From a virus (taxonomy: Duplodnaviria; Caudoviricetes), in the IMG/VR virus record IMGVR_UViG_3300009692_000020, positions 445-64,444 of that record: a stretch of DNA of 64,000 nucleotides. One strand, written 5' to 3'. Shown piece by piece: positions 617-36,798 of this stretch (position 1 is the first letter of the stretch; each line of letters starts with the position of its first letter). Position numbers and translations under genes: made by a program. A model generated the notes under the pieces. It was not told the DNA's origin, made no database searches, and worked only from the letters and a program-made list of their open reading frames with translations.

Positions 617-3501
617 GAGAACTAACACCGGCTACTCAAGCACTCGCTGATAGGCGATTAGGTACTGAACCAATCGCCATAATTAAAGTGGAGTGGACAA
701 CTGGTACTCGCTACTATGCAGACAAGTCGTTCACTTTAGGAGCATTAAACATTGAAGGTAAAATATATGATTTCTCAACAGTGTCGGGGCAACTAAATGA
801 CAAATCCTATGGACAGATTCAGTCAGCTTCTTGTACTCTTAGTGATATTGATGGTTCTCTTAAAGATTTATTTGACAATACGGTCGTGGAGCAACGTCCC
901 GTAACTATATATCATCACTATGAAGGATTGGGAGAAGCTGATTTAGTTCCTATTCTTCACGGCAAAGTTGTATCCAATATAACTTGGAATGAAGGTGACC
1001 GCAAGTTCAGTTTTGAAATAAATGCTGAAATAGATAGCGAAGATTTACTACTGGAGATACATGAAGGTTGTGTAGACTTTCCCGCCGAAGAAGATGTTGG
1101 TAAAGTTCTTCCCCTATGTTTTGGTACACCTCTACGAGTTCCAGGAGTTGAACTTCAGTTGGGTTGTACTGGCGAATTGCTTACTGCTATATCATCGTGG
1201 ACGACATGGTATAGAGAACCTAATGATCCGGACACTGGCAAGACTACATATAAAAGCACACATTTCCACGTTAGCCACTTCGAGGACTATGCAGGTCAGA
1301 CCGTACTGTTAGAGATTGATAAATCACTATACTTAGTCAAGTTCGATACAGACGATAAGACATCGTGTAACTGTGTAGGTATAGGTAGTTTCAATACAGG
1401 CTATCCTATTAATTGTCAGATTGCAGGACGTCTCGAATCGGATTACGACTATACAAATATTAACGCCATATGGATAACTACGGATAAAGACGTCCGCGGT
1501 AAGACACTTCTAATTCATGTCGATAGAGTATATAAGTACCTAGAGGACGATAACGGTGGTATGCACGAAGTGAATCCCGATACTCTAGCCGTTCCTAATG
1601 CCGATAAGTCGGGTGATGCGGACATTAAGACTAAGACAACAACTGAAACGTTTGTTTGCACCATTGGTAATCAAGACGGGACTAAAGCCTTTATGTCCCA
1701 ACCTTATCGTGATTTATTTTACAAGGAAAGACTACTTGGCACTACTCACAACGAGAAATATCCAACATATCCATCTGTTGTGATGAGCATCAAAGGTAAA
1801 ACGGAATTTGAGTGGAGCATGTTACCTAATCAAAATGAACCTCTATACTGGAATATATCACCTGGGGCTAAGGTTAAGATATATAATGCCGGTAGTGTTA
1901 TAGTGGTTAATAGCGTTCCTAGTTTGGCTATACATGAAGTTATGGCTAAACGTAAAGGTGAACTGGTAGCCGTTCCTAGTTCCTACTTTGATATATTCTT
2001 AGATTATCCCTGCGTTGTCGATCCCTCTACTGGAGTAGTGGAACATCTTACTGTATTGAAGTTCAAAACTGATTTAGCAAGCATACCCAATGAGAATTGG
2101 GATGGCAGTAGGATATACGTCAGCCTAACCAGTTCTATTGGCGACAATACAACTGATGATGCAATCAGATGGATACTGGCTCATAGGATAACCGGCTTAA
2201 TACCGGACACTACTACGTTTGATGAAGTATCTGCTTTGATTGAGAAGTATCCAAGTCATTTCGCCGTACTTAGCCAAGTGGATGCTTTAGCAGCTATAAA
2301 GGACTTCGCTTGGCAAGCTAGGGTTGGTATGTACTTGGAAGCCGGTATAGCATATACTCATTATCTTTCCAAAGAGCCAACTGAATCAATATACACATCG
2401 AACATATCGAAGATTCAGTTCAAGAGCATGAACATAAGTAAGACTAGCACTGATGACATACATCCGAAGTTCACTGGATTGTGGAATCACACGTATGAGG
2501 AAGAAGAAAAGAAGAAAGTCATCTATGAAACTAATAAGTTACTGTATACGAAGAAGGATTACGAGTGTACCTTCTCGATATACAATATCCAATCGCTTGT
2601 TGAGAAGAGCGCAAGATTTTGGTCTTATCGCATGGCTAACGCGTGGGTGAAGTTGAAGATAAATACTTTCTTAACTTCCTTAGCAGTTCAGATGTGGGAT
2701 GTAATAACTGTTCACTGTGATTATATTAATGGTGGTGCAGATATTTTCGGAGTGGTTGATGGAATCGATATTGATACATCGACGCATCAGATAACTCTTA
2801 ATGTTTGGTTACCAATCAAACAAGGCGAAGGCTTAGCCTATTTAGATGATAGTGCTGATGTTAAGCCACCTAATCCCGCGGAAGGATTGAGTCTTACTGA
2901 TTATAAGATACCGGTAGATAATCCTCGTGCAAGAGCACCGGCATCAATTAGGAAAGCGGGTAGGACAGTTAAGAAAGACGCACCTAGAACATCAGAAAGC
3001 AACGCTGATGTAGGTCAGAGTTTGGGTACTACTGCCACATTTAAGATATTGGAAGTATACGATAACGTTCTCAAGTGTATGCTGACCAATCCCGATAACA
3101 TTAAAGAGAATGGTAAGATTGAGAATCCTCCCGATCCGGATGATGAGGATTTAATCTTTTGGATAGCGAAGTATTCAGATGGTAACTCCGGTTCGCTTAG
3201 GGTTATGGATTGGGACGGCAAATCATTTGCTGATGGTAAGAATCCCGATTTCCCAATGGTGAATTATCAACGGCAAGCAGAGGACGTTCGTAGGGCATCC
3301 GGCAAGGATTTAGACGGGAATGATTATATCCAAACGGAAGTAGTCAATCCACCATATAGGAAAAGCGATGGCACGTTCACTACCGTACAGGCTAAATATT
3401 ATCCCGATGGTCTTGGATTGGCACATCCTAAGCCGGGAAAATTATACTGGTTGGAAATAAGTCATAGGGCATGGGCAAAGAAAGAGGAAGTAACAAGCTA
3501 A
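613..3501 (+). CDS. Tail tip / baseplate hub-like protein, 962 aa
   Basis: Large ORF downstream of distal-tail-like genes; N-terminus (YADKSFTL...GKIYDFSTV...V.IYHHYEG) resembles phage tail hub proteins. Confidence 0.55.
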   Translation: MRELTPATQALADRRLGTEPIAIIKVEWTTGTRYYADKSFTLGALNIEGKIYDFSTVSGQLNDKSYGQIQSASCTLSDIDGSLKDLFDNTVVEQRPVTIYHHYEGLGEADLVPILHGKVVSNITWNEGDRKFSFEINAEIDSEDLLLEIHEGCVDFPAEEDVGKVLPLCFGTPLRVPGVELQLGCTGELLTAISSWTTWYREPNDPDTGKTTYKSTHFHVSHFEDYAGQTVLLEIDKSLYLVKFDTDDKTSCNCVGIGSFNTGYPINCQIAGRLESDYDYTNINAIWITTDKDVRGKTLLIHVDRVYKYLEDDNGGMHEVNPDTLAVPNADKSGDADIKTKTTTETFVCTIGNQDGTKAFMSQPYRDLFYKERLLGTTHNEKYPTYPSVVMSIKGKTEFEWSMLPNQNEPLYWNISPGAKVKIYNAGSVIVVNSVPSLAIHEVMAKRKGELVAVPSSYFDIFLDYPCVVDPSTGVVEHLTVLKFKTDLASIPNENWDGSRIYVSLTSSIGDNTTDDAIRWILAHRITGLIPDTTTFDEVSALIEKYPSHFAVLSQVDALAAIKDFAWQARVGMYLEAGIAYTHYLSKEPTESIYTSNISKIQFKSMNISKTSTDDIHPKFTGLWNHTYEEEEKKKVIYETNKLLYTKKDYECTFSIYNIQSLVEKSARFWSYRMANAWVKLKINTFLTSLAVQMWDVITVHCDYINGGADIFGVVDGIDIDTSTHQITLNVWLPIKQGEGLAYLDDSADVKPPNPAEGLSLTDYKIPVDNPRARAPASIRKAGRTVKKDAPRTSESNADVGQSLGTTATFKILEVYDNVLKCMLTNPDNIKENGKIENPPDPDDEDLIFWIAKYSDGNSGSLRVMDWDGKSFADGKNPDFPMVNYQRQAEDVRRASGKDLDGNDYIQTEVVNPPYRKSDGTFTTVQAKYYPDGLGLAHPKPGKLYWLEISHRAWAKKEEVTS

Positions 3502-5789
3502 TGGGACTCCTTAATGTATTTGATAAAAATGATTTAGGCTCTTTTGTGGAGAGTCCATTTCAAGCACGTAATCTCGAATCGGAAGAGATGGTACGTGTTT
3601 GGGGTTGGAGGTATAGACACATCTGTCATACATTAAGAGATTTCTCTGCTATTAATGGCTCTTATCCTGCTGCATATATAACCACTAGACAATGGTGGCA
3701 GGATTCATATGTAGCTAGTGGAGTATATGATTCAGCAGGTGGAGAAACAGTTATTCGTGAACTATGGCAAAACATAATAACCACAATGTTAGCTTACAGG
3801 GAAAGCGATTTAACTTATCCACTTTATCATTGGTACGGTTCTGATGGTTTCATCAAAAATGAAGCCTCACCTAGAACTGATATAAAATATGGGGTGTTAC
3901 CGGAAAATTTAGTGTATAAGTTCTTTCAAGGTGGAAGTTATATTTCTAATTACTCCTATTGTAAGTTGTTGGAGCATCTTAACTTAGGCGGTATTGATCC
4001 TATAACTGGTAGGCGTGAATGGAGTAAGTGTAATTCAGATAATACAATATACTATACCCCATACATGTCGGGTAAGACCTTTACGATTTGTCAATCAACG
4101 TCATACAAGACACAACCAGTAGGTCCACCCATACTAATGACTAATGGAGAGATAGTATTTCAAGAACTCGAAGCGTGTCTTGACTACTTGAAAAAGACAG
4201 TTTCTCCTGCAGCTAATTCGGGATATTCCAGTTATTATCCTCTAATAATTGAAACAGATTTAGACGCTGATGCAAATGGTGTTGGATACTCTACTTACTG
4301 TGCAGCTGATCCAAATAGATGTTGCAATCATTCCGCTGAACTAACTTGGCAACAATTATCTCACTATACTCACGACGACGGTGCAGGATATAGAATGTAT
4401 CAAAGTCGCTTTCAAAATGTTCTAAATATTAATTTAAATGTAGAATGGATGGGTTGGCAAGGTCATTGTCAATATACTTTAGCTAGCACTCTTTGGCATA
4501 ATAGTATACGTACAAGTTCGTATTACGATATATATCAGAACAATATATTATATATTTGGCTTAATGATGCATATGCTGAATTTCTTACCAGTTTAGACTA
4601 TCAATATACACATGGATATGGTTGGTCTTCTACAACTAATTATGCATTAGGCAATACTTGTTGGGGCATTGTAGGTTCTCGTTATCATACTTATACTTCA
4701 CTACAAAATAATAATTTAAATCATGCTTTAACCGACGGTGCATGGTGGACAGACAGTGGTGAAATATCAACATATTTAGATAACTATGAAAATAGAGAAT
4801 TTATAAGATTCCCCAATTCCAAAAAGGGCAGTTATATATCACTAACTAATGGTTGGGTTGAAACAACCAGTAATTTAATAAAGTTGGTAAGTTCTAAAGA
4901 GGATGATAGATTTGGACCTATGCCTTCTGTTCTTCCGGTATCCGGACACAGTTCTATTAGATCATTTACTGTGGCAGATTGGGTGACTTTTAGAGAATTC
5001 ACATTTAAATCTAAGATAGCATTAGGCTATAAAGATATGTATCATCCAAAATGTCCTTTCTGTAATAGACCTTATTTAATATGTAATGCCATAAGCCTAA
5101 GTAGAGTATATGGGCAAGGTTACACGGCTGATGAACTAAAAGACATGATTGTGCCTGTTACTAATAATAATGCAGGAAGCACTGCCAATATAAATGTTTA
5201 TACAACTAAAAGCGGTAACTTTAATGTTACGCCATTAGGTGCAGCAGCGTTCAATACACCTACATTTAATTTACATTACGAAATACTAGATGTGTTAAAT
5301 CAAGATACTTTACCTAATAGCAAAACATATCAATGTTATATAGCTGATACTGGTGATAAATCTGATACTAAATCGACATATCTAGATTGTCGTTTATATA
5401 TGGCAATAACTTGGTCGGCTATATCTCATGCTTGTCCTCCAGTATATCCATCATACGGTGTTGAACTAAACTGGAATATTAGTCAGAACTATGCTAATCC
5501 TAGACCTAATGTTCAGATTGTTTTCCGTTCTAGTGCGGGGCGATTAAAATGGTCTATGGGTACACCTACATGGACAGGAGGAACATTTGGGCATTTTGAT
5601 AAAGCAAGTGATGATCAACCTTATAATGGTGGTGCATTTGTGTATTCATATCTTAATCTAATTCTTGATGATAATACATTCACAACACAGAAAAGTGTTT
5701 CTTTCAGAGTTGATTACGTTGGTGGAGGAATGGGCAGTAATAATTATAATTACTGTAATATTAATATTGTGTTCCAAGCGAAGCCTTAG
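3471..5789 (+). CDS. Tyr/Trp/Asn-rich tail or receptor-binding protein (likely start 3501)
   Basis: ORF track; aromatic-rich composition; follows hub gene; ATG at 3501 overlaps the upstream stop. Confidence 0.45.
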   Translation: MGKERGSNKLMGLLNVFDKNDLGSFVESPFQARNLESEEMVRVWGWRYRHICHTLRDFSAINGSYPAAYITTRQWWQDSYVASGVYDSAGGETVIRELWQNIITTMLAYRESDLTYPLYHWYGSDGFIKNEASPRTDIKYGVLPENLVYKFFQGGSYISNYSYCKLLEHLNLGGIDPITGRREWSKCNSDNTIYYTPYMSGKTFTICQSTSYKTQPVGPPILMTNGEIVFQELEACLDYLKKTVSPAANSGYSSYYPLIIETDLDADANGVGYSTYCAADPNRCCNHSAELTWQQLSHYTHDDGAGYRMYQSRFQNVLNINLNVEWMGWQGHCQYTLASTLWHNSIRTSSYYDIYQNNILYIWLNDAYAEFLTSLDYQYTHGYGWSSTTNYALGNTCWGIVGSRYHTYTSLQNNNLNHALTDGAWWTDSGEISTYLDNYENREFIRFPNSKKGSYISLTNGWVETTSNLIKLVSSKEDDRFGPMPSVLPVSGHSSIRSFTVADWVTFREFTFKSKIALGYKDMYHPKCPFCNRPYLICNAISLSRVYGQGYTADELKDMIVPVTNNNAGSTANINVYTTKSGNFNVTPLGAAAFNTPTFNLHYEILDVLNQDTLPNSKTYQCYIADTGDKSDTKSTYLDCRLYMAITWSAISHACPPVYPSYGVELNWNISQNYANPRPNVQIVFRSSAGRLKWSMGTPTWTGGTFGHFDKASDDQPYNGGAFVYSYLNLILDDNTFTTQKSVSFRVDYVGGGMGSNNYNYCNINIVFQAKP

Positions 5790-7553: not shown

Positions 7554-8118
7554 CAAGCATACCTAGCATTTTCTTATAGCAGAGTAGTGATGTGCGAGCA
7601 TCACTCTCTGCGGAATGTGCTACCATATTTTGGATGCCCAATCGTTCTGACACCTTTTCCAAGCCTACTGCGTTGAAGAACTTAACGCTCTTCCTTGCGA
7701 AATGCACATCATTAATTATCTGTGCCATAATCATACTATCCTTAAAGCGATAGTGGAAAATGTCTTGGAAGTCTGTGGGGTTGGGCATTAGCGTCTTTAG
7801 GAACATCAAATCAAAAGAGATATTGTGTCCAAGAGGAACTATCTTGGTGATTAGATTCTTCCTTCGCCATTCACGTATGGTCTTCCATGCTTCGGATTTC
7901 GCAATCCCGACAGTTGGATCAAGTTTGTTGATAGCTATGGCTTTGGCATCGACAGGATTATTTGCCCTTATACGCAAGTTCAGAGTGAGTCCTAAATCTT
8001 CGAACTTGTCATTGACAGGCATGATGCATAAGGATAGTACCTCATGCAATCGTGGATCAAGTCCACTCGTTTCAGTGTCGATAGCACAGACTGTGTAATC
8101 TGATTCATTCATCGTCAT
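7534..8118 (-). CDS. DEDDh 3'-5' exonuclease (DnaQ-like)
   Basis: ExoI IDTETSG, ExoII GHNISFDL, ExoIII HSAESDA. Confidence 0.9.
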   Translation of the reverse strand: MTMNESDYTVCAIDTETSGLDPRLHEVLSLCIMPVNDKFEDLGLTLNLRIRANNPVDAKAIAINKLDPTVGIAKSEAWKTIREWRRKNLITKIVPLGHNISFDLMFLKTLMPNPTDFQDIFHYRFKDSMIMAQIINDVHFARKSVKFFNAVGLEKVSERLGIQNMVAHSAESDARTSLLCYKKMLGMLAIVEPT

Positions 8119-8184
8119 CTCCTTTTAATATTGTGAAATATATAGTCATCACCAGTATGAACCCTATTCCTACCCCTAACCAAA

Positions 8185-14353: not shown

Positions 14354-14542
14354 CAATGTACTATACTACAATATAAGGTAAAAAACAAGTATTATTTAAC
14401 TTACTAACTTACTAACTTACAAATATTTATAGATTGCTAAATATTGTAATATATACCATATATATAAACGTATTTCAAACTGTTTTTTAGTAAGTTTGTA
14501 ACCTTACTTGTTTTTTCTTATATATTGTAGTATAGTACATTG
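14354..14542. promoter_or_regulatory. Duplicated divergent promoter pair (inverted repeat)
   Basis: 22 bp perfect IR 14354-14375 / 14521-14542, about 38 bp imperfect; the right copy reads TTGTTT-N17-TATAGT; flanking operons diverge. Confidence 0.75.
14398..14420. repeat. Tandem AACTTACT x3
   Basis: aacttact-aacttact-aacttac between the two promoter copies. Confidence 0.8.
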
Positions 14543-32820: not shown

Positions 32821-32861
32821 GTTAGTTAGTTAGTTAGTAAGTATATTAGTAAGTAAGTTAG
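32821..32861. repeat. GTTA/GTAAG tandem repeat
   Basis: gttagttagttagttagtaagtatattagtaagtaagttag; resembles the reverse complement of 14398-14420. Confidence 0.75.
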
Positions 32862-33583: not shown

Positions 33584-33820
33584 TTACTGATTCATCAATC
33601 GTTTTAAAATTTCCTCGCGAACATATTGCGCCTTTACAGAGTCATTTTTCTTCAATTCTGTAAACGCGCAAGATAGATACTTGATGTATGAATCATTCGC
33701 AAATAGCTTTTCCGAATAATCCGAGAAAATGCCGAAGTTTTGACGGCAATAATTTGCCAAATCAAAATTCGTCATATTAACGAATTTATCGGAATAAACA
33801 ATTTTATAAATATCATCCAT
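33584..33820 (-). CDS. Hypothetical protein
   Basis: ORF track; AAGGA SD; TTGATT-N17-TATATA promoter near 33890-33920 on the minus strand. Confidence 0.6.
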   Translation of the reverse strand: MDDIYKIVYSDKFVNMTNFDLANYCRQNFGIFSDYSEKLFANDSYIKYLSCAFTELKKNDSVKAQYVREEILKRLMNQ

Positions 33821-33961
33821 TTTGTTCCTTAAATAATTGAATATTGCTTTCCGCTTTCCGATTTTATTTATTTCTCAAAACATAGCCAGTATATAAAGGC
33901 TATTACAATAAAAATCAATAAAAACGAAATCTCATTCATGGGATTTCCCGTCCCATGTTAG

Positions 33962-34879
33962 TTAGTTGCTTTTTGCCTTGACGTAATCTTTCAACTCGGA
34001 ATCAGTAATTTCACCTAAAACCCATGAAAGAGTTTTCCGCACGATAGCATTTTCAGTGCCTTTTGACATATTTTCTATGTCGGACTTTGACCGCTTTACG
34101 GATTTTTTCTTATCATCCGGTTGGCGGTTTATTTCCTTTAGTTCCTCGACCTTATCTTCGAACGCTTTTGGAGGTTCGGAAACCTTTGTTTCCGGATTAG
34201 CCTTTACAAGTTCGTTCCAAAATTCAGAAAGTATTTTAATATCTTTCTGAGTTAGGTCGGAATTCCGACCTTGCCATGCCTTTATATATTCCTCTTGAAC
34301 GGAAACAGGCAAAAGGGCAAGACGGCGGAAATTCTGAATAGTGCCGTGGTGCTTTTCGAAAATTACTTTTTCTTCGGCGCGGTCGGCATCTTCATGCATT
34401 TCGACCGCCTCTTTTCGAGCATCTTTTATCTTTTCCGGCGATGGACTACCGAAAGAGGAATTCAGAAGCATTTTACAACGCTTTATTATTGCCGAATCAC
34501 CGAAAGACAAAAGGAAAAATTCCTTTATTGCCTTGAAACATTCCGCTTTTGAAAGCGGTGTTTCCTCATTATGGTCCATAAGAATTTCCAACATATCCAA
34601 TTCCGTTAATCCGCTTTTCGGAATAACAATACACGGAATAGTTTTGATATGTTCGAATTTCATGGCACTTGCCCAACGGCGGTGACCTTGCCCTATTTCA
34701 AATTTTCCCGAACCATCATCAAAGACAACGCAAGGCTTTTTAATTCCTGTTGTAGTCTTTTCATCTTTGAGCGTATCATCTATATCAAAGGTGATAAGTT
34801 CAATTCTCGGATTTTTGACGTTAGGAAAGCACTTGTCTTTTGCTATTTCCTGAATTTTAAGACCTTTAAGATTAATCAT
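33962..34879 (-). CDS. ParB-like protein 3 (divergent)
   Basis: NPRIEL, GIKKPCVVF, IGQGHRRW, IPCIV, DHNEE. Confidence 0.75.
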   Translation of the reverse strand: MINLKGLKIQEIAKDKCFPNVKNPRIELITFDIDDTLKDEKTTTGIKKPCVVFDDGSGKFEIGQGHRRWASAMKFEHIKTIPCIVIPKSGLTELDMLEILMDHNEETPLSKAECFKAIKEFFLLSFGDSAIIKRCKMLLNSSFGSPSPEKIKDARKEAVEMHEDADRAEEKVIFEKHHGTIQNFRRLALLPVSVQEEYIKAWQGRNSDLTQKDIKILSEFWNELVKANPETKVSEPPKAFEDKVEELKEINRQPDDKKKSVKRSKSDIENMSKGTENAIVRKTLSWVLGEITDSELKDYVKAKSN

Positions 34880-35238
34880 TTACGCACCTCATTTTTGAGG
34901 AAAGCGGAAAAGCAATATTCAATCATTTAATGAAATTTGATTAAGATTATTTGAAATCGTAATCCAGTAAAAAAGTTTTTATCTTTTTTAATTTCCCTGT
35001 TGTATTTTGTTTTCAGCTTGGATTTTCAAAATCCCGTTTTTGAAAAACAAAACACTATTTAATTATCAATGAACATAGGATATATAATATCCTTATATAT
35101 AGTATATCCTTAATTTAATAGTTCAAACAAAAGTAAAAAATAATTGAAAATAATTTTCTGAATTTACAGCATACTAAAAATTATTTTCAAGCCTTTACAA
35201 AATAAATTGAAAATATTTTTTAGTGCCTCTTGAAATTT

Positions 35239-35412
35239 TTAATTTAGTTCAATTGAAATATGCTTTAATAAAAGCCTTTTTTCCTTGTAAAGTCTAAAAT
35301 GTCTTTCCTGTAAAATATCATTTCCTCTTTTGTTTAAATAGCTTTCAAGCCTTTTTAGTTTCCTATTTACTCTTTCCAGTTTGTTTATTAATTCCATTAT
35401 TCCGCTTTTCAT
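35239..35412 (-). CDS. 57 aa basic coiled-coil microprotein (cassette B)
   Basis: Manual translation MKSGIMELINKLERVNRKLKRLESYLNK...ISIELN; SD AAAAGGTGAT. Confidence 0.65.
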   Translation of the reverse strand: MKSGIMELINKLERVNRKLKRLESYLNKRGNDILQERHFRLYKEKRLLLKHISIELN

Positions 35413-35496
35413 GTTATCACCTTTTGGCTATTCAAGAGGCACTAAAAAATATTTTCTATACTGTTGTATATTGTATATCTTGCCTTTTGCCTTTTG

Positions 35497-35811
35497 TTAA
35501 TTGACAATTCCAAGTAATAGAATTTTATTTTGATATTCGTAATTCAAAAATAAATTTTCTTCAAGCGGAATAAGTTTTAAATATATTTCCGTTTTCTTTG
35601 TTTGCTCTTTAATAAAAAATATCTCAAAAGCATTTTCAATTATTAAATGATATTCCGCTTTCCAGTATGCATGGTCAATTACTTTTGTTTCCTTGTGTTG
35701 TATAACGTATGACATAACCGCTTGAATTAAATATCTATCTTGTATTGTTTCCATACTGGATAAATAATTAAGGCAAGTAAAACCATCTATCTTTAAAATT
35801 TTAATTTCCAT
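35497..35811 (-). CDS. Hypothetical protein (cassette C)
   Basis: ORF track; SD AAAAGGTGAT. Confidence 0.65.
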   Translation of the reverse strand: MEIKILKIDGFTCLNYLSSMETIQDRYLIQAVMSYVIQHKETKVIDHAYWKAEYHLIIENAFEIFFIKEQTKKTEIYLKLIPLEENLFLNYEYQNKILLLGIVN

Positions 35812-35910
35812 TTTATCACCTTTTCAAAAGGCAAGCTATACAATATACAACAGTATTTTTATTTTGTTTGAAAAATTATTCTATTGTGAATCTGTTGTAT
35901 CTTGTTTGTT

Positions 35911-36204
35911 TTAGTAATTCGTTATCATACTTTGCGCGGTCGCTAAAGCGTCATCGAAATTCGTCGCGAAATATTCGTTGTCTTTTTGTCTTTTCCCATT
36001 TACATAAATTTGAACAACGAATTCACCATAAGCGTTTTTCCTATTCGGAATATTTGCATAAGATATTTTTTCAATTCTAATATTTTGTAATTCTGTTTTG
36101 CAATTGAATTTTTGTATTGCCTCAGATTCGCAAGAGGCGTCAATAATTAAATTGCGTTTTTCGTTAGTACCAAAAATTACGAAATGATAATTAAAAATTT
36201 TCAT
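35911..36204 (-). CDS. Hypothetical protein (cassette D)
   Basis: ORF track; SD AAAAAGGTGAT. Confidence 0.65.
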   Translation of the reverse strand: MKIFNYHFVIFGTNEKRNLIIDASCESEAIQKFNCKTELQNIRIEKISYANIPNRKNAYGEFVVQIYVNGKRQKDNEYFATNFDDALATAQSMITNY

Positions 36205-36798
36205 TGTATCACCTTTTTATTTTCGATACAACAGATTACAATAGAATAATTTTTCAATTAGGATAACAAGTTTTTATCTTGTTATTATTTACCTTTGTTT
36301 TAATTTGTAGCTTTGCACGTTCGTGCCAGTTTTTACAAACTTCAAACTATTATATTATCAATGAACATAGGATATATTATTATCCTATAATAATATAATT
36401 GTCATTCGTAAATAAACAAACTATACAAGCAAAATAAATAAAATATTTTAAAAATAGTTTTGTTGTATCGCGTTGTGATTCAACAACCATTTACAACAGG
36501 CGGTGGGTTATAATTGTTGTAGTAAGTTGTGAAATTTTCCAAGTCCGCCGAACCCTCCATCGAAACTCACATATATGGTGTATTTAATACTTCATACGGA
36601 TTGCACAATCCGAGAGCCAGTGGGTAATTGTTACACGAGTCGTTGGCAAATGTTAAAAGTGAATCGGCATTTATGATTTTTATATTTTCGCGGGAAGGCA
36701 CTACTTGTTATTATTTGTGTTTTGTAGTATAGTAAGTGAAAATGTATGATTGCATAATCATGGCAGTAAAGTGTGTAAGCTGATGGAGTAATCGTTTT

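Follow-up and report, generated by a model that had tools for sequence, protein, structure and literature searches.

In a 64,000-nucleotide (nt) stretch of DNA from an uncultured phage, we analyzed four neighbouring minus-strand cistrons, D, C, B and A, each of which lies between the two arms of an inverted repeat of its own. The stretch (hereafter the window, to whose positions all unlabelled coordinates refer) makes up nearly all of the IMG/VR virus record IMGVR_UViG_3300009692_000020, which is 64,444 bp long and has direct terminal repeats. Cistrons D, C and B encode proteins of 97, 104 and 57 amino acids (aa), and A comprises a ParB-like protein of 305 aa followed by a mini-open reading frame (mini-ORF) of 23 aa; the arms are 26-36 nt long. 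We conclude that the arms are very probably selected as helices in the sense RNA, each joining the two ends of one cistron. That these helices also belong to a complete scheme of antitermination and RNA processing, similar to that used for ribosomal RNA (rRNA), is a reading towards which we lean, if only slightly.

The original prediction, made from the sequence alone, had placed each of the four genes within a private inverted repeat, and all four repeats were found where it had put them or a few bases away. The pairing reported for B (35209-35234 / 35431-35456) is perfect at 26/26 and extends to 28 of 29 positions over 35206-35234 / 35431-35459. C pairs at 31 of 32 positions (35458-35489 / 35825-35856), and D forms 33 pairs with a 1-nt bulge (35868-35901 / 36225-36257). 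The 24-bp core described for A (33836-33859 / 34899-34923) is real and sits inside a longer 36-nt arm (33825-33859 / 34899-34934) with 33 Watson-Crick pairs, two mismatches and one bulge. The near-identical Shine-Dalgarno (SD) site AAAAGGTGAT ahead of B, C and D and a gene-less pair of arms at 35144-35190 were confirmed as well. From 5' to 3' on the minus strand, the parts are as follows.

36225..36257, minus strand: 5' (leader) strand of helix D, ending 20 nt before the ATG and directly 5' of the SD AAAGGTGAT
35911..36204, minus strand: gene D, 97 aa, function unassigned, with a weak match to PHROG 7884
35868..35901, minus strand: 3' (trailer) strand of helix D, beginning 9 nt past the stop codon and containing the 1-nt bulge
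35825..35856, minus strand: 5' strand of helix C, ending 13 nt before the ATG
35497..35811, minus strand: gene C, 104 aa, no family matched
35458..35489, minus strand: 3' strand of helix C, beginning 7 nt past the stop codon and abutting the 5' strand of helix B
35431..35459, minus strand: 5' strand of helix B, ending 18 nt before the ATG
35239..35412, minus strand: gene B, 57 aa, basic, probably a coiled coil
35206..35234, minus strand: 3' strand of helix B, beginning 4 nt past the stop codon
35144..35190, minus strand: pair of arms without a gene, resembling those of B and forming a 14-bp A/U helix (loop of 19 nt), then a U-run
34899..34934, minus strand: 5' strand of helix A, 36 nt, ending 19 nt before the ParB ATG
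33962..34879, minus strand: gene A, ParB_N-domain protein, 305 aa
33868..33939, minus strand: mini-ORF, 23 aa, hydrophobic (MNEISFLLIFIVIAFIYWLCFEK), with a GGGA..TCCC hairpin over its start region
33825..33859, minus strand: 3' strand of helix A, beginning 8 nt past the mini-ORF stop codon

To determine how often such repeats arise by chance, the whole window was scanned for arms of at least 18 nt lying 100-1500 nt apart, with local third-order Markov shuffles as controls. Five inverted repeats were found, four of which were the A-D pairs, against 0.17 expected per window from the shuffles. For the island of minus-strand genes that holds the four cistrons, the four long-range inverted repeats compare with an expectation of 0.064, and any single shuffle gave at most one. 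Each arm pair is unique in the genome, with its partners 196-1040 nt apart. The cassettes stand back-to-back, with 1-11 nt between neighbouring arms, and the mutual complementarity of neighbouring arms (D-3'/C-5' and C-3'/B-5') does not extend beyond 9 nt. Both the minimum free energy and the centroid folds predicted for the D-C-B RNA consist of three successive cistron-enclosing helices.

We next turned to related phages. Nine contigs carry protein D letter for letter, and the four that were compared (L011-L014) are 100% identical over 3.3 kb of the island and are thus uninformative on variation. One further contig of 784 nt (L015) encodes a D homologue with 57% identity. The other relatives (L016-L029) were found via ParB homologues with 44-70% identity, of which P0004 is the closest (70%); a search with a ParB alignment gave no hits in genome contigs, none in viral contigs and two short loci in metagenome contigs. 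Eight relatives are distinct i.e., L015, L016/17, L018-21, L022, L023, L026, L027 and L029. All eight have a ParB gene and one to four adjacent small genes, each with its own enclosing arms. These arms are mostly 19-36 nt long, with two short ones of 11 and 15 nt, and in sequence they bear no relation to the window arms. When the 70 nt upstream of 34 genes were paired in silico with every downstream region, the cognate partner came first for 20 cassettes.

Whole-cassette MAFFT alignment of seven ParB cassettes left the arms out of register, and compensatory changes were therefore counted on arm-only alignments of homologous stems, with the following results.

Window A versus L016: 7 double changes, 1 one-sided
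L016 versus L027: 11 double changes, 3 one-sided
L018 versus L029: 8 double changes, 1 one-sided
L022 versus L026: 5 double changes, 1 one-sided
Window D arms versus those of the first L015 cassette: 8 double changes, 0 one-sided

An unguided alignment of five B-family cassettes, analyzed with RNAalifold, returned the terminal helix only, with compensatory changes at 6 of its 15 pairs. As judged from the aligned arms, it is complementarity and not sequence that is conserved, whereas a protein-binding site or a promoter would keep its sequence. The original prediction had looked to relatives for cassette turnover with covarying repeats, and this is the pattern that we found: the layout is kept, the arms change by compensatory pairs, and cassette content differs from one phage to another.

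To ask which strand the pairing serves, the non-Watson-Crick positions of 23 stems were classed in mRNA orientation. Alongside 614 Watson-Crick pairs, there were 15 G:U pairs, 3 A:C appositions (which would be wobble pairs on the antisense strand) and 17 other mismatches. The excess of G:U over A:C was significant in a one-sided binomial test (p = 0.004) and remained so after one site of shared descent was dropped (14 versus 3, p = 0.006); the ParB stem of L023 adds three further G:U pairs. We read this bias as pointing to pairing in the sense transcript, as support that is not decisive.

The position of the arms is also fixed. Across 16 small cassettes, the distance from the end of the 5' arm to the ATG has a median of 13 nt (range 8-32), which puts the arm directly upstream of the SD, and the distance from the stop codon to the start of the 3' arm has a median of 6.5 nt (range 2-11). 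With this geometry, the helix brings the stop codon of a cistron next to its own SD. For B, C and D, 13-20 nt separate the 5' arm from the ATG, and the SD AAAGGTGAT is left unpaired. The one SD that falls within a helix strand belongs to the gene that follows A: the outermost 6 nt of the A trailer strand (33825-33830, AAGGAA) form the SD-like site of the 78-aa gene at 33584-33820. In all nine phages, the enclosed ORFs are co-oriented with their operon.

Arms and ORFs can, moreover, part company. In L015, the ORF between the arms homologous to those of D in the window is an unrelated one of 77 aa; the D homologue has other arms around it. The homologous arms share their outer, middle and inner motifs with the window, as well as the same bulge and the same post-stop spacer ACAAACAA. 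Arms and ORF are thus not transferred together, which speaks against cassettes of mobile or invertible DNA and suggests a persistent RNA 'socket' (arm, SD, stop codon, arm) with an exchangeable ORF inside. A separate observation concerns L023 (371-1350): the arms of four successive cassettes have a common outer part (ATTGAATATGTCTAT(A/T)GAG), and only their inner part varies. The shared outer parts create 19-bp local palindromes at the junctions, and non-cognate arms can cross-pair.

The leaders of the two window operons have features in common, chief among them a block of 23-24 nt that is repeated upstream of D and of A and contains the 13-mer TGTTCATTGATAA.

36369..36386, minus strand: palindrome AGGATA..TATCCT in the D-C-B leader, directly 5' of the boxA-like motif and part of the repeated block
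36355..36367, minus strand: boxA-like 13-mer TGTTCATTGATAA in the D-C-B leader, within the conserved 23-mer 36347-36369
36265..36283, minus strand: leader hairpin with a 6-bp stem and loop AUAAAAA, directly 5' of the first helix
35077-35093: palindrome in the A leader, in the second copy of the repeated block
35063..35075, minus strand: second copy of the boxA-like 13-mer, in the A (ParB) leader, within the 23-mer 35055-35077
34970..34988, minus strand: second leader hairpin, AAAAAG / loop AUAAAAA / CUUUUU

Of eight leaders covered in full, seven contain the pattern TGTTCNNTGANA as a single sense-strand copy 75-230 nt upstream of the first helix; these are the two leaders of the window and those of L015, L016, L018 and L022 (both TGTTCTTTGACAT) and L023 (TGTTCTTTGAAAA). 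We took this type of 13-mer to resemble the boxA of Firmicutes rRNA operons and then tested the resemblance by a genome scan. In the genome collection, TGTTCTTTGAAAAC was sense-oriented 26-211 nt upstream of 16S or 23S genes at 10 of 18 loci, as checked with Rfam. The 18 loci came from Bacilli/Firmicutes, Mollicutes and Veillonella, and most of the remaining ones end at a contig edge beside the motif. This location ahead of the rRNA genes agrees with that described for boxA in rRNA operons (PMC10250234). The leader of L023 has the exact TGTTCTTTGAAAA about 40 nt downstream of a TTGCAT-16-TATGGT promoter, and for this phage the identification as boxA appears good. The window copy TGTTCATTGATAA matches TGTTCTTTGAAAA at 11 of 13 positions, as do the copies of L018 and L022, with TGTTCTTTGAAAA being a Firmicutes rrn (rRNA operon) sequence that may not be that of the host. 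A search of IMG/VR for the pattern of the leader 23-mer gave no match. We also considered the repeated block as a promoter and rejected this, as it has no suitably spaced -10 element and holds TGTTCATTGATAA.

The two leader palindromes are near-perfect, AGGATAT(N3-4)ATATCCT, and are likely operator or promoter-proximal sites; both operons may be under one common repressor. The stem of the leader hairpin covaries among its three copies (AACAAG/CTTGTT, AAAAAG/CTTTTT and AACGAA/TTCGTT), the third of which is at L015:85-103, and its loop is conserved as AUA(A/G)AAA. It could be a boxB-like protein-binding hairpin.

The mechanism that we propose would run as follows. Two operons, D-C-B and A-mini-ORF-onward, would be transcribed from promoters upstream of 36369 and 35077, respectively, and the nascent leader would carry the boxA-like element and the small hairpin. 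For each cistron, the RNA directly upstream of the SD would pair with that directly downstream of the stop codon in a helix of 26-36 bp, so that the polycistronic RNA would become a row of loops, one cistron per loop. Host RNase III would cut this operon RNA into single-gene mRNAs with their 5' and 3' ends still paired. Such cleavage would be expected because the duplexes are near-perfect and long, given what is known of RNase III and of the icaR mRNA (PMC3868564). The paired ends would protect each message from end-dependent RNases and insulate its translation from that of its neighbours. The boxA-like element would recruit the host Nus antitermination machinery, as in rrn operons, keeping the polymerase going through long untranslated structured RNA and helping the leader strand to find the trailer strand. 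Cleavage, stabilisation, Nus dependence and ribosome recycling are what we infer from the arrangement of the elements. Among the phage-encoded proteins there was no RNase III and no RtcB; a host enzyme would thus be needed for any RNase III cut, and neither phage-made processing nor RtcB-type circularisation is supported. In a bolder version, which we put forward only tentatively, the accessory genes would be 'rRNA-operon mimics', with a boxA/Nus leader, end-paired pseudo-circular mRNAs excised by RNase III, ribosome recycling through the adjacency of stop codon and SD, and ORFs dropped into sockets, so that evolution would act on the socket as its unit and not on the gene.

In rrn operons, leader-trailer helices contain the RNase III site and are combined with boxA tethering (PMC10250234). 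There, boxA recruits NusB/NusE, and the tethered leader is proposed to stay poised for pairing with the trailer (PMC10250234). The phage arrangement resembles these stalks in that a single transcript contains consecutive long-range helices, each formed by the two flanks of an enclosed RNA. Pairing is kept by covariation, helix length suits RNase III, and the boxA-like element 5' of the first helix, exact in L023 and 11/13 in the window, would be a further likeness. It differs in that the enclosed RNAs are translated cistrons with their own SD and protein homologues and have no Rfam match, and in that the helices are shorter and nearly perfect, while the boxA match of the window is imperfect. 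In the way it works, the phage layout is like an rrn stalk, but it falls outside the rrn family. The original prediction had offered RNA panhandles like rRNA processing stems as one option, to serve either RNase III release or fold-back silencing of translation. The likeness to processing stems gained support from the conserved layout with its covariation, the sense-strand G:U pairs, the fixed arm positions and the boxA-like leader element; silencing by fold-back gained none for B, C and D, the SD of which lies just outside the helix.

Pairing between the two untranslated ends of a message is known from single genes. In the Staphylococcus aureus icaR mRNA, the duplex of the 5' and 3' untranslated regions (UTRs) is an RNase III substrate and a UCCCCUG motif pairs with the SD (PMC3868564), and in the Bacillus subtilis hbs mRNA a 14-bp pairing of the 5'- and 3'-UTRs modulates RNase access (PMC5737220). 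The phage messages likewise would have their 5' and 3' untranslated ends paired together. Unlike icaR and hbs, which are single genes with short pairings, they form an array of 26-36-bp helices, one per cistron, across a phage family. SD occlusion of the icaR type was rejected for B, C and D on the position of their SDs. In the early mRNA of phage T7, host RNase III cuts the polycistronic RNA into single-gene messages with stabilised duplex ends. T7 uses local intercistronic hairpins, whereas here each helix spans a whole cistron and both ends of the product would be paired together. In type I toxin mRNAs of the hok/sok kind (tac-fbi pairing), a long-range 5'-3' interaction closes the mRNA of a small gene. 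The phage helices share this long-range closure, and a small hydrophobic peptide ORF lies inside helix A. They differ from hok/sok in several respects: neither an antisense RNA gene nor refolding triggered by processing was seen, few of the enclosed proteins are hydrophobic, the pairing extends over greater lengths, and it does not cover the SDs of B, C and D.

Helices that join the two ends of an RNA over a long range are standard knowledge for rRNA; among bacterial mRNAs, only a handful of single cases are known. Our literature search, whose coverage was incomplete and which is no proof of novelty, gave no description of cistron-enclosing helices in DNA phages. If the proposal is true, phages copy the host's logic for making rRNA (antitermination, long-range helix, RNase III excision) to obtain stable, insulated messages, and the socket would give builders of synthetic operons an insulator that is modular and of natural origin. 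Sharply defined and conserved, the system lends itself to direct testing. It would allow the study of end communication in bacterial mRNAs and possible 'closed-loop' translation in bacteria, and of the way in which new accessory genes enter phage genomes with their expression signals already in place.

Several points weigh against this interpretation. Strand-asymmetric C-to-T mutation by deamination could inflate the G:U excess, given the purine-rich sense strand, and the complementarity itself could stem from DNA-level conversion between the arms, not from selection on RNA. Matches to boxA of 11/13 quality occur in the window at chance frequency (5 found versus 4.1 expected), and one ParB leader, that of L029, has no boxA-like motif. 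Three genes downstream of A (78, 60 and 58 aa) have no helix, and a helix is thus not required for every gene of the island. Transcription start sites, co-transcription and helix formation in vivo are deduced here from sequence. A host RNase III and a host boxA are assumed on the strength of the strong SDs and of sigma-70-like promoters (TTGACA-16-TATAGT in L029).

RNase III cleaves duplexes of about two helical turns or more. A first rival accepts the helices and supposes that they stay uncut, serving as closed-loop devices by which terminating ribosomes re-initiate on the same message, or shielding the ends from RNase J/E/Y and 3' exonucleases. All the evidence for RNA helices fits this rival equally well, and it would account for the tight constraint on the stop-to-helix and helix-to-ATG distances (medians of 6.5 and 13 nt), with the terminating ribosome having to melt the inner pairs beside the SD. 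The 5'/3'-UTR pairing of hbs, which modulates the access of RNase Y (PMC5737220), offers a precedent. Near-perfect duplexes of 26-36 bp, however, exceed the 14-bp hbs pairing, and their escape from host RNase III is unlikely; we regard uncut helices as an unlikely alternative, though one to be taken seriously.

Helices cut or uncut share an RNA basis; a second rival would have the arms act in DNA instead, as the ends of a mobile or invertible unit that in a circular form join into a private palindromic site, cut at its centre by a structure-specific recombinase, or as aids to recombination by which phages exchange cassettes. The back-to-back packing of the cassettes, the variation of their content between relatives, the TTGAA(A/T)AT-like motifs shared by the outer ends of many arms, the local palindromes at each junction of neighbouring L023 arms and the empty shell at 35144-35190 could all be read in its favour. 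Against this, the arms are private, and no single sequence-specific recombinase could use them. The original prediction had seen no recombinase, and a Pfam scan of 26 ORFs bore this out, with no integrase, invertase or transposase domain among them. The co-orientation of the enclosed ORFs in all nine phages and the identity of the four protein D contigs, none of which holds an inverted or excised form, likewise lend no support to the earlier suggestion of invertible or excisable cassettes. The unlinking of arms and ORF in L015 is the opposite of what unit mobility predicts, and a sense-strand G:U bias is not expected of double-stranded DNA sites. Action in DNA is therefore quite improbable in our view.

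Three known kinds of DNA element were considered by name and rejected. Invertible segments of the Hin/Gin/Cin type do not fit private arms, the lack of a recombinase in the 26 ORFs and a single orientation in nine phages. In integron attC cassettes the partners would not lie on opposite sides of the gene as they do here; no tyrosine recombinase was found in the 26 ORFs, and local junction palindromes occur only in L023. Miniature inverted-repeat transposable elements and other small transposons with terminal inverted repeats (e.g., the mycobacteriophage element MPME) were set aside as each pair is unique in the genome and no flanking direct duplications were seen.

The arms might also be paired protein-binding sites (inverted operators) that loop the DNA around each gene, with a ParB-like protein or B as the binder. 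The phage encodes three ParB-like proteins, and a partly palindromic ATTGAATAT-like outer motif is present in many arms and also in the spacer of sigma-70-like promoters of relatives. The inner 10-20 nt are nevertheless private and unrelated between cassettes and phages, yet are kept complementary through double changes, and the motif is absent from the arms of several relatives (e.g., L018 5118-5140 and L022 2020-2042), which leaves operators very improbable.

Least credible of all, to the point of being nearly dismissed, is a promoter in each arm giving convergent sense and antisense transcription across the gene, which the original prediction had offered as an option, with a motif in the C arms similar to the phage promoters. 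The resemblance of TATATTGTATA in the C arms to the perfect 22-bp repeat of the divergent region 14354-14542 does exist, but with 3 mismatches in 15, and such matches occur in the window at about twice the chance frequency. The arms of B, D and A and those of all relatives share no -35/-10 pair, the GC-rich arms of relatives are not promoter-like, and promoters would keep their sequence, whereas the arms change freely while staying paired. In a scan for sigma-70 promoters and intrinsic terminators, both were at or below chance, with 20 sigma-70-like sites found versus 17.5 expected.

Returning to the helices of the sense RNA, we examined the A operon and its mini-ORF. The downstream arm of A lies 102 nt from the ParB stop codon, and the gap is filled by the conserved 23-aa mini-ORF. 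A strongly hydrophobic ORF of 17-23 aa follows the ParB gene inside helix A in all eight relatives (sites after the ParB stop codon in the window, L016, L018, L022, L023, L026, L027 and L029). In most relatives, a GGGA..TCCC-type hairpin with a GGAGG-like SD abuts its start codon. The product may be a small membrane peptide or type-I-toxin-like. In L023 (~2990-3050) and L029 (~1650-1690), the A trailer strand overlaps the leader strand of the helix of the next cassette. The two pairings are thus mutually exclusive and neighbouring structures can compete, which may order or couple the expression of neighbours.

Protein B belongs to a family of 57-67 aa with the C-terminus ..LKH(I/L)x(I/M)EL(N/K). 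It is conserved directly upstream of the ParB operon promoter in every relative that covers this position, with homologues at L016:1-240, L018:5423-5599, L023:1373-1570 and L029:91-294. The conserved core of the island is B, ParB, the mini-ORF and the 78-aa family, and D and C are variable. No relatives of proteins C and D were found in IMG/VR, and looking up proteins B and D in the ESM Atlas yielded nothing of use. The gene-less pair at 35144-35190 may be an emptied B-type socket, the terminator of the D-C-B operon, or both; its 5' arm can pair locally with the B trailer strand (35173-35190 with 35207-35224).

The island of minus-strand genes (~33.0-36.4 kb) has a low GC content (32%) and a purine-rich sense strand, and is flanked on either side by plus-strand replication and packaging modules. 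The window encodes a family-A DNA polymerase, a primase-helicase-like protein, a DNA ligase, a D12 methyltransferase and three ParB_N proteins, as well as a gpA-type large terminase (TerL) followed by structural genes. BLASTN of the island against 50,697 phage records gave no match, and neither did an Rfam scan; no tRNAs were found. A GGTGAT SD and TATA-like motifs prompted us to consider an archaeal host with bulge-helix-bulge processing. This was rejected because the helices have no such bulges and relatives have canonical TTGACA-16-TATAGT promoters.

More distant relatives, found through TerL (L008-L010, 47-49% identical), proved too distant. In L010 (4879-5354), and also in L009, a 30-nt inverted repeat surrounds clustered palindromes of the form TGTAGG(N)AAATCCTACA, along with repeats similar to CATGTCAAAATGACA. 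It adjoins a minus-strand island and encloses no clear gene, its 318-aa neighbour in L010 is not a ParB homologue, and the element looks regulatory or origin-like rather than like a gene cassette.

Finally, repeats of another kind were seen at the edges of modules. The perfect 22-bp inverted repeat mentioned above (14354-14375 / 14521-14542) lies in the divergent region between primase and ParB1 and encloses a gene-less AT-rich stretch with CTTACTAAC repeats and stop codons in all frames. Similar repeats of the TTAGTAAGT type are found at the far border of the island, at 32.8 kb (32821-32861). In L018, the whole island lies between inverted repeats of ~340 bp that are ~90% identical (4389-4721 / 7791-8131) and are built of the same element. 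We regard repeats of the CTTACTAAC/TTAGTAAGT type as putative module-boundary elements, with terminator, origin or inversion site as candidate roles.

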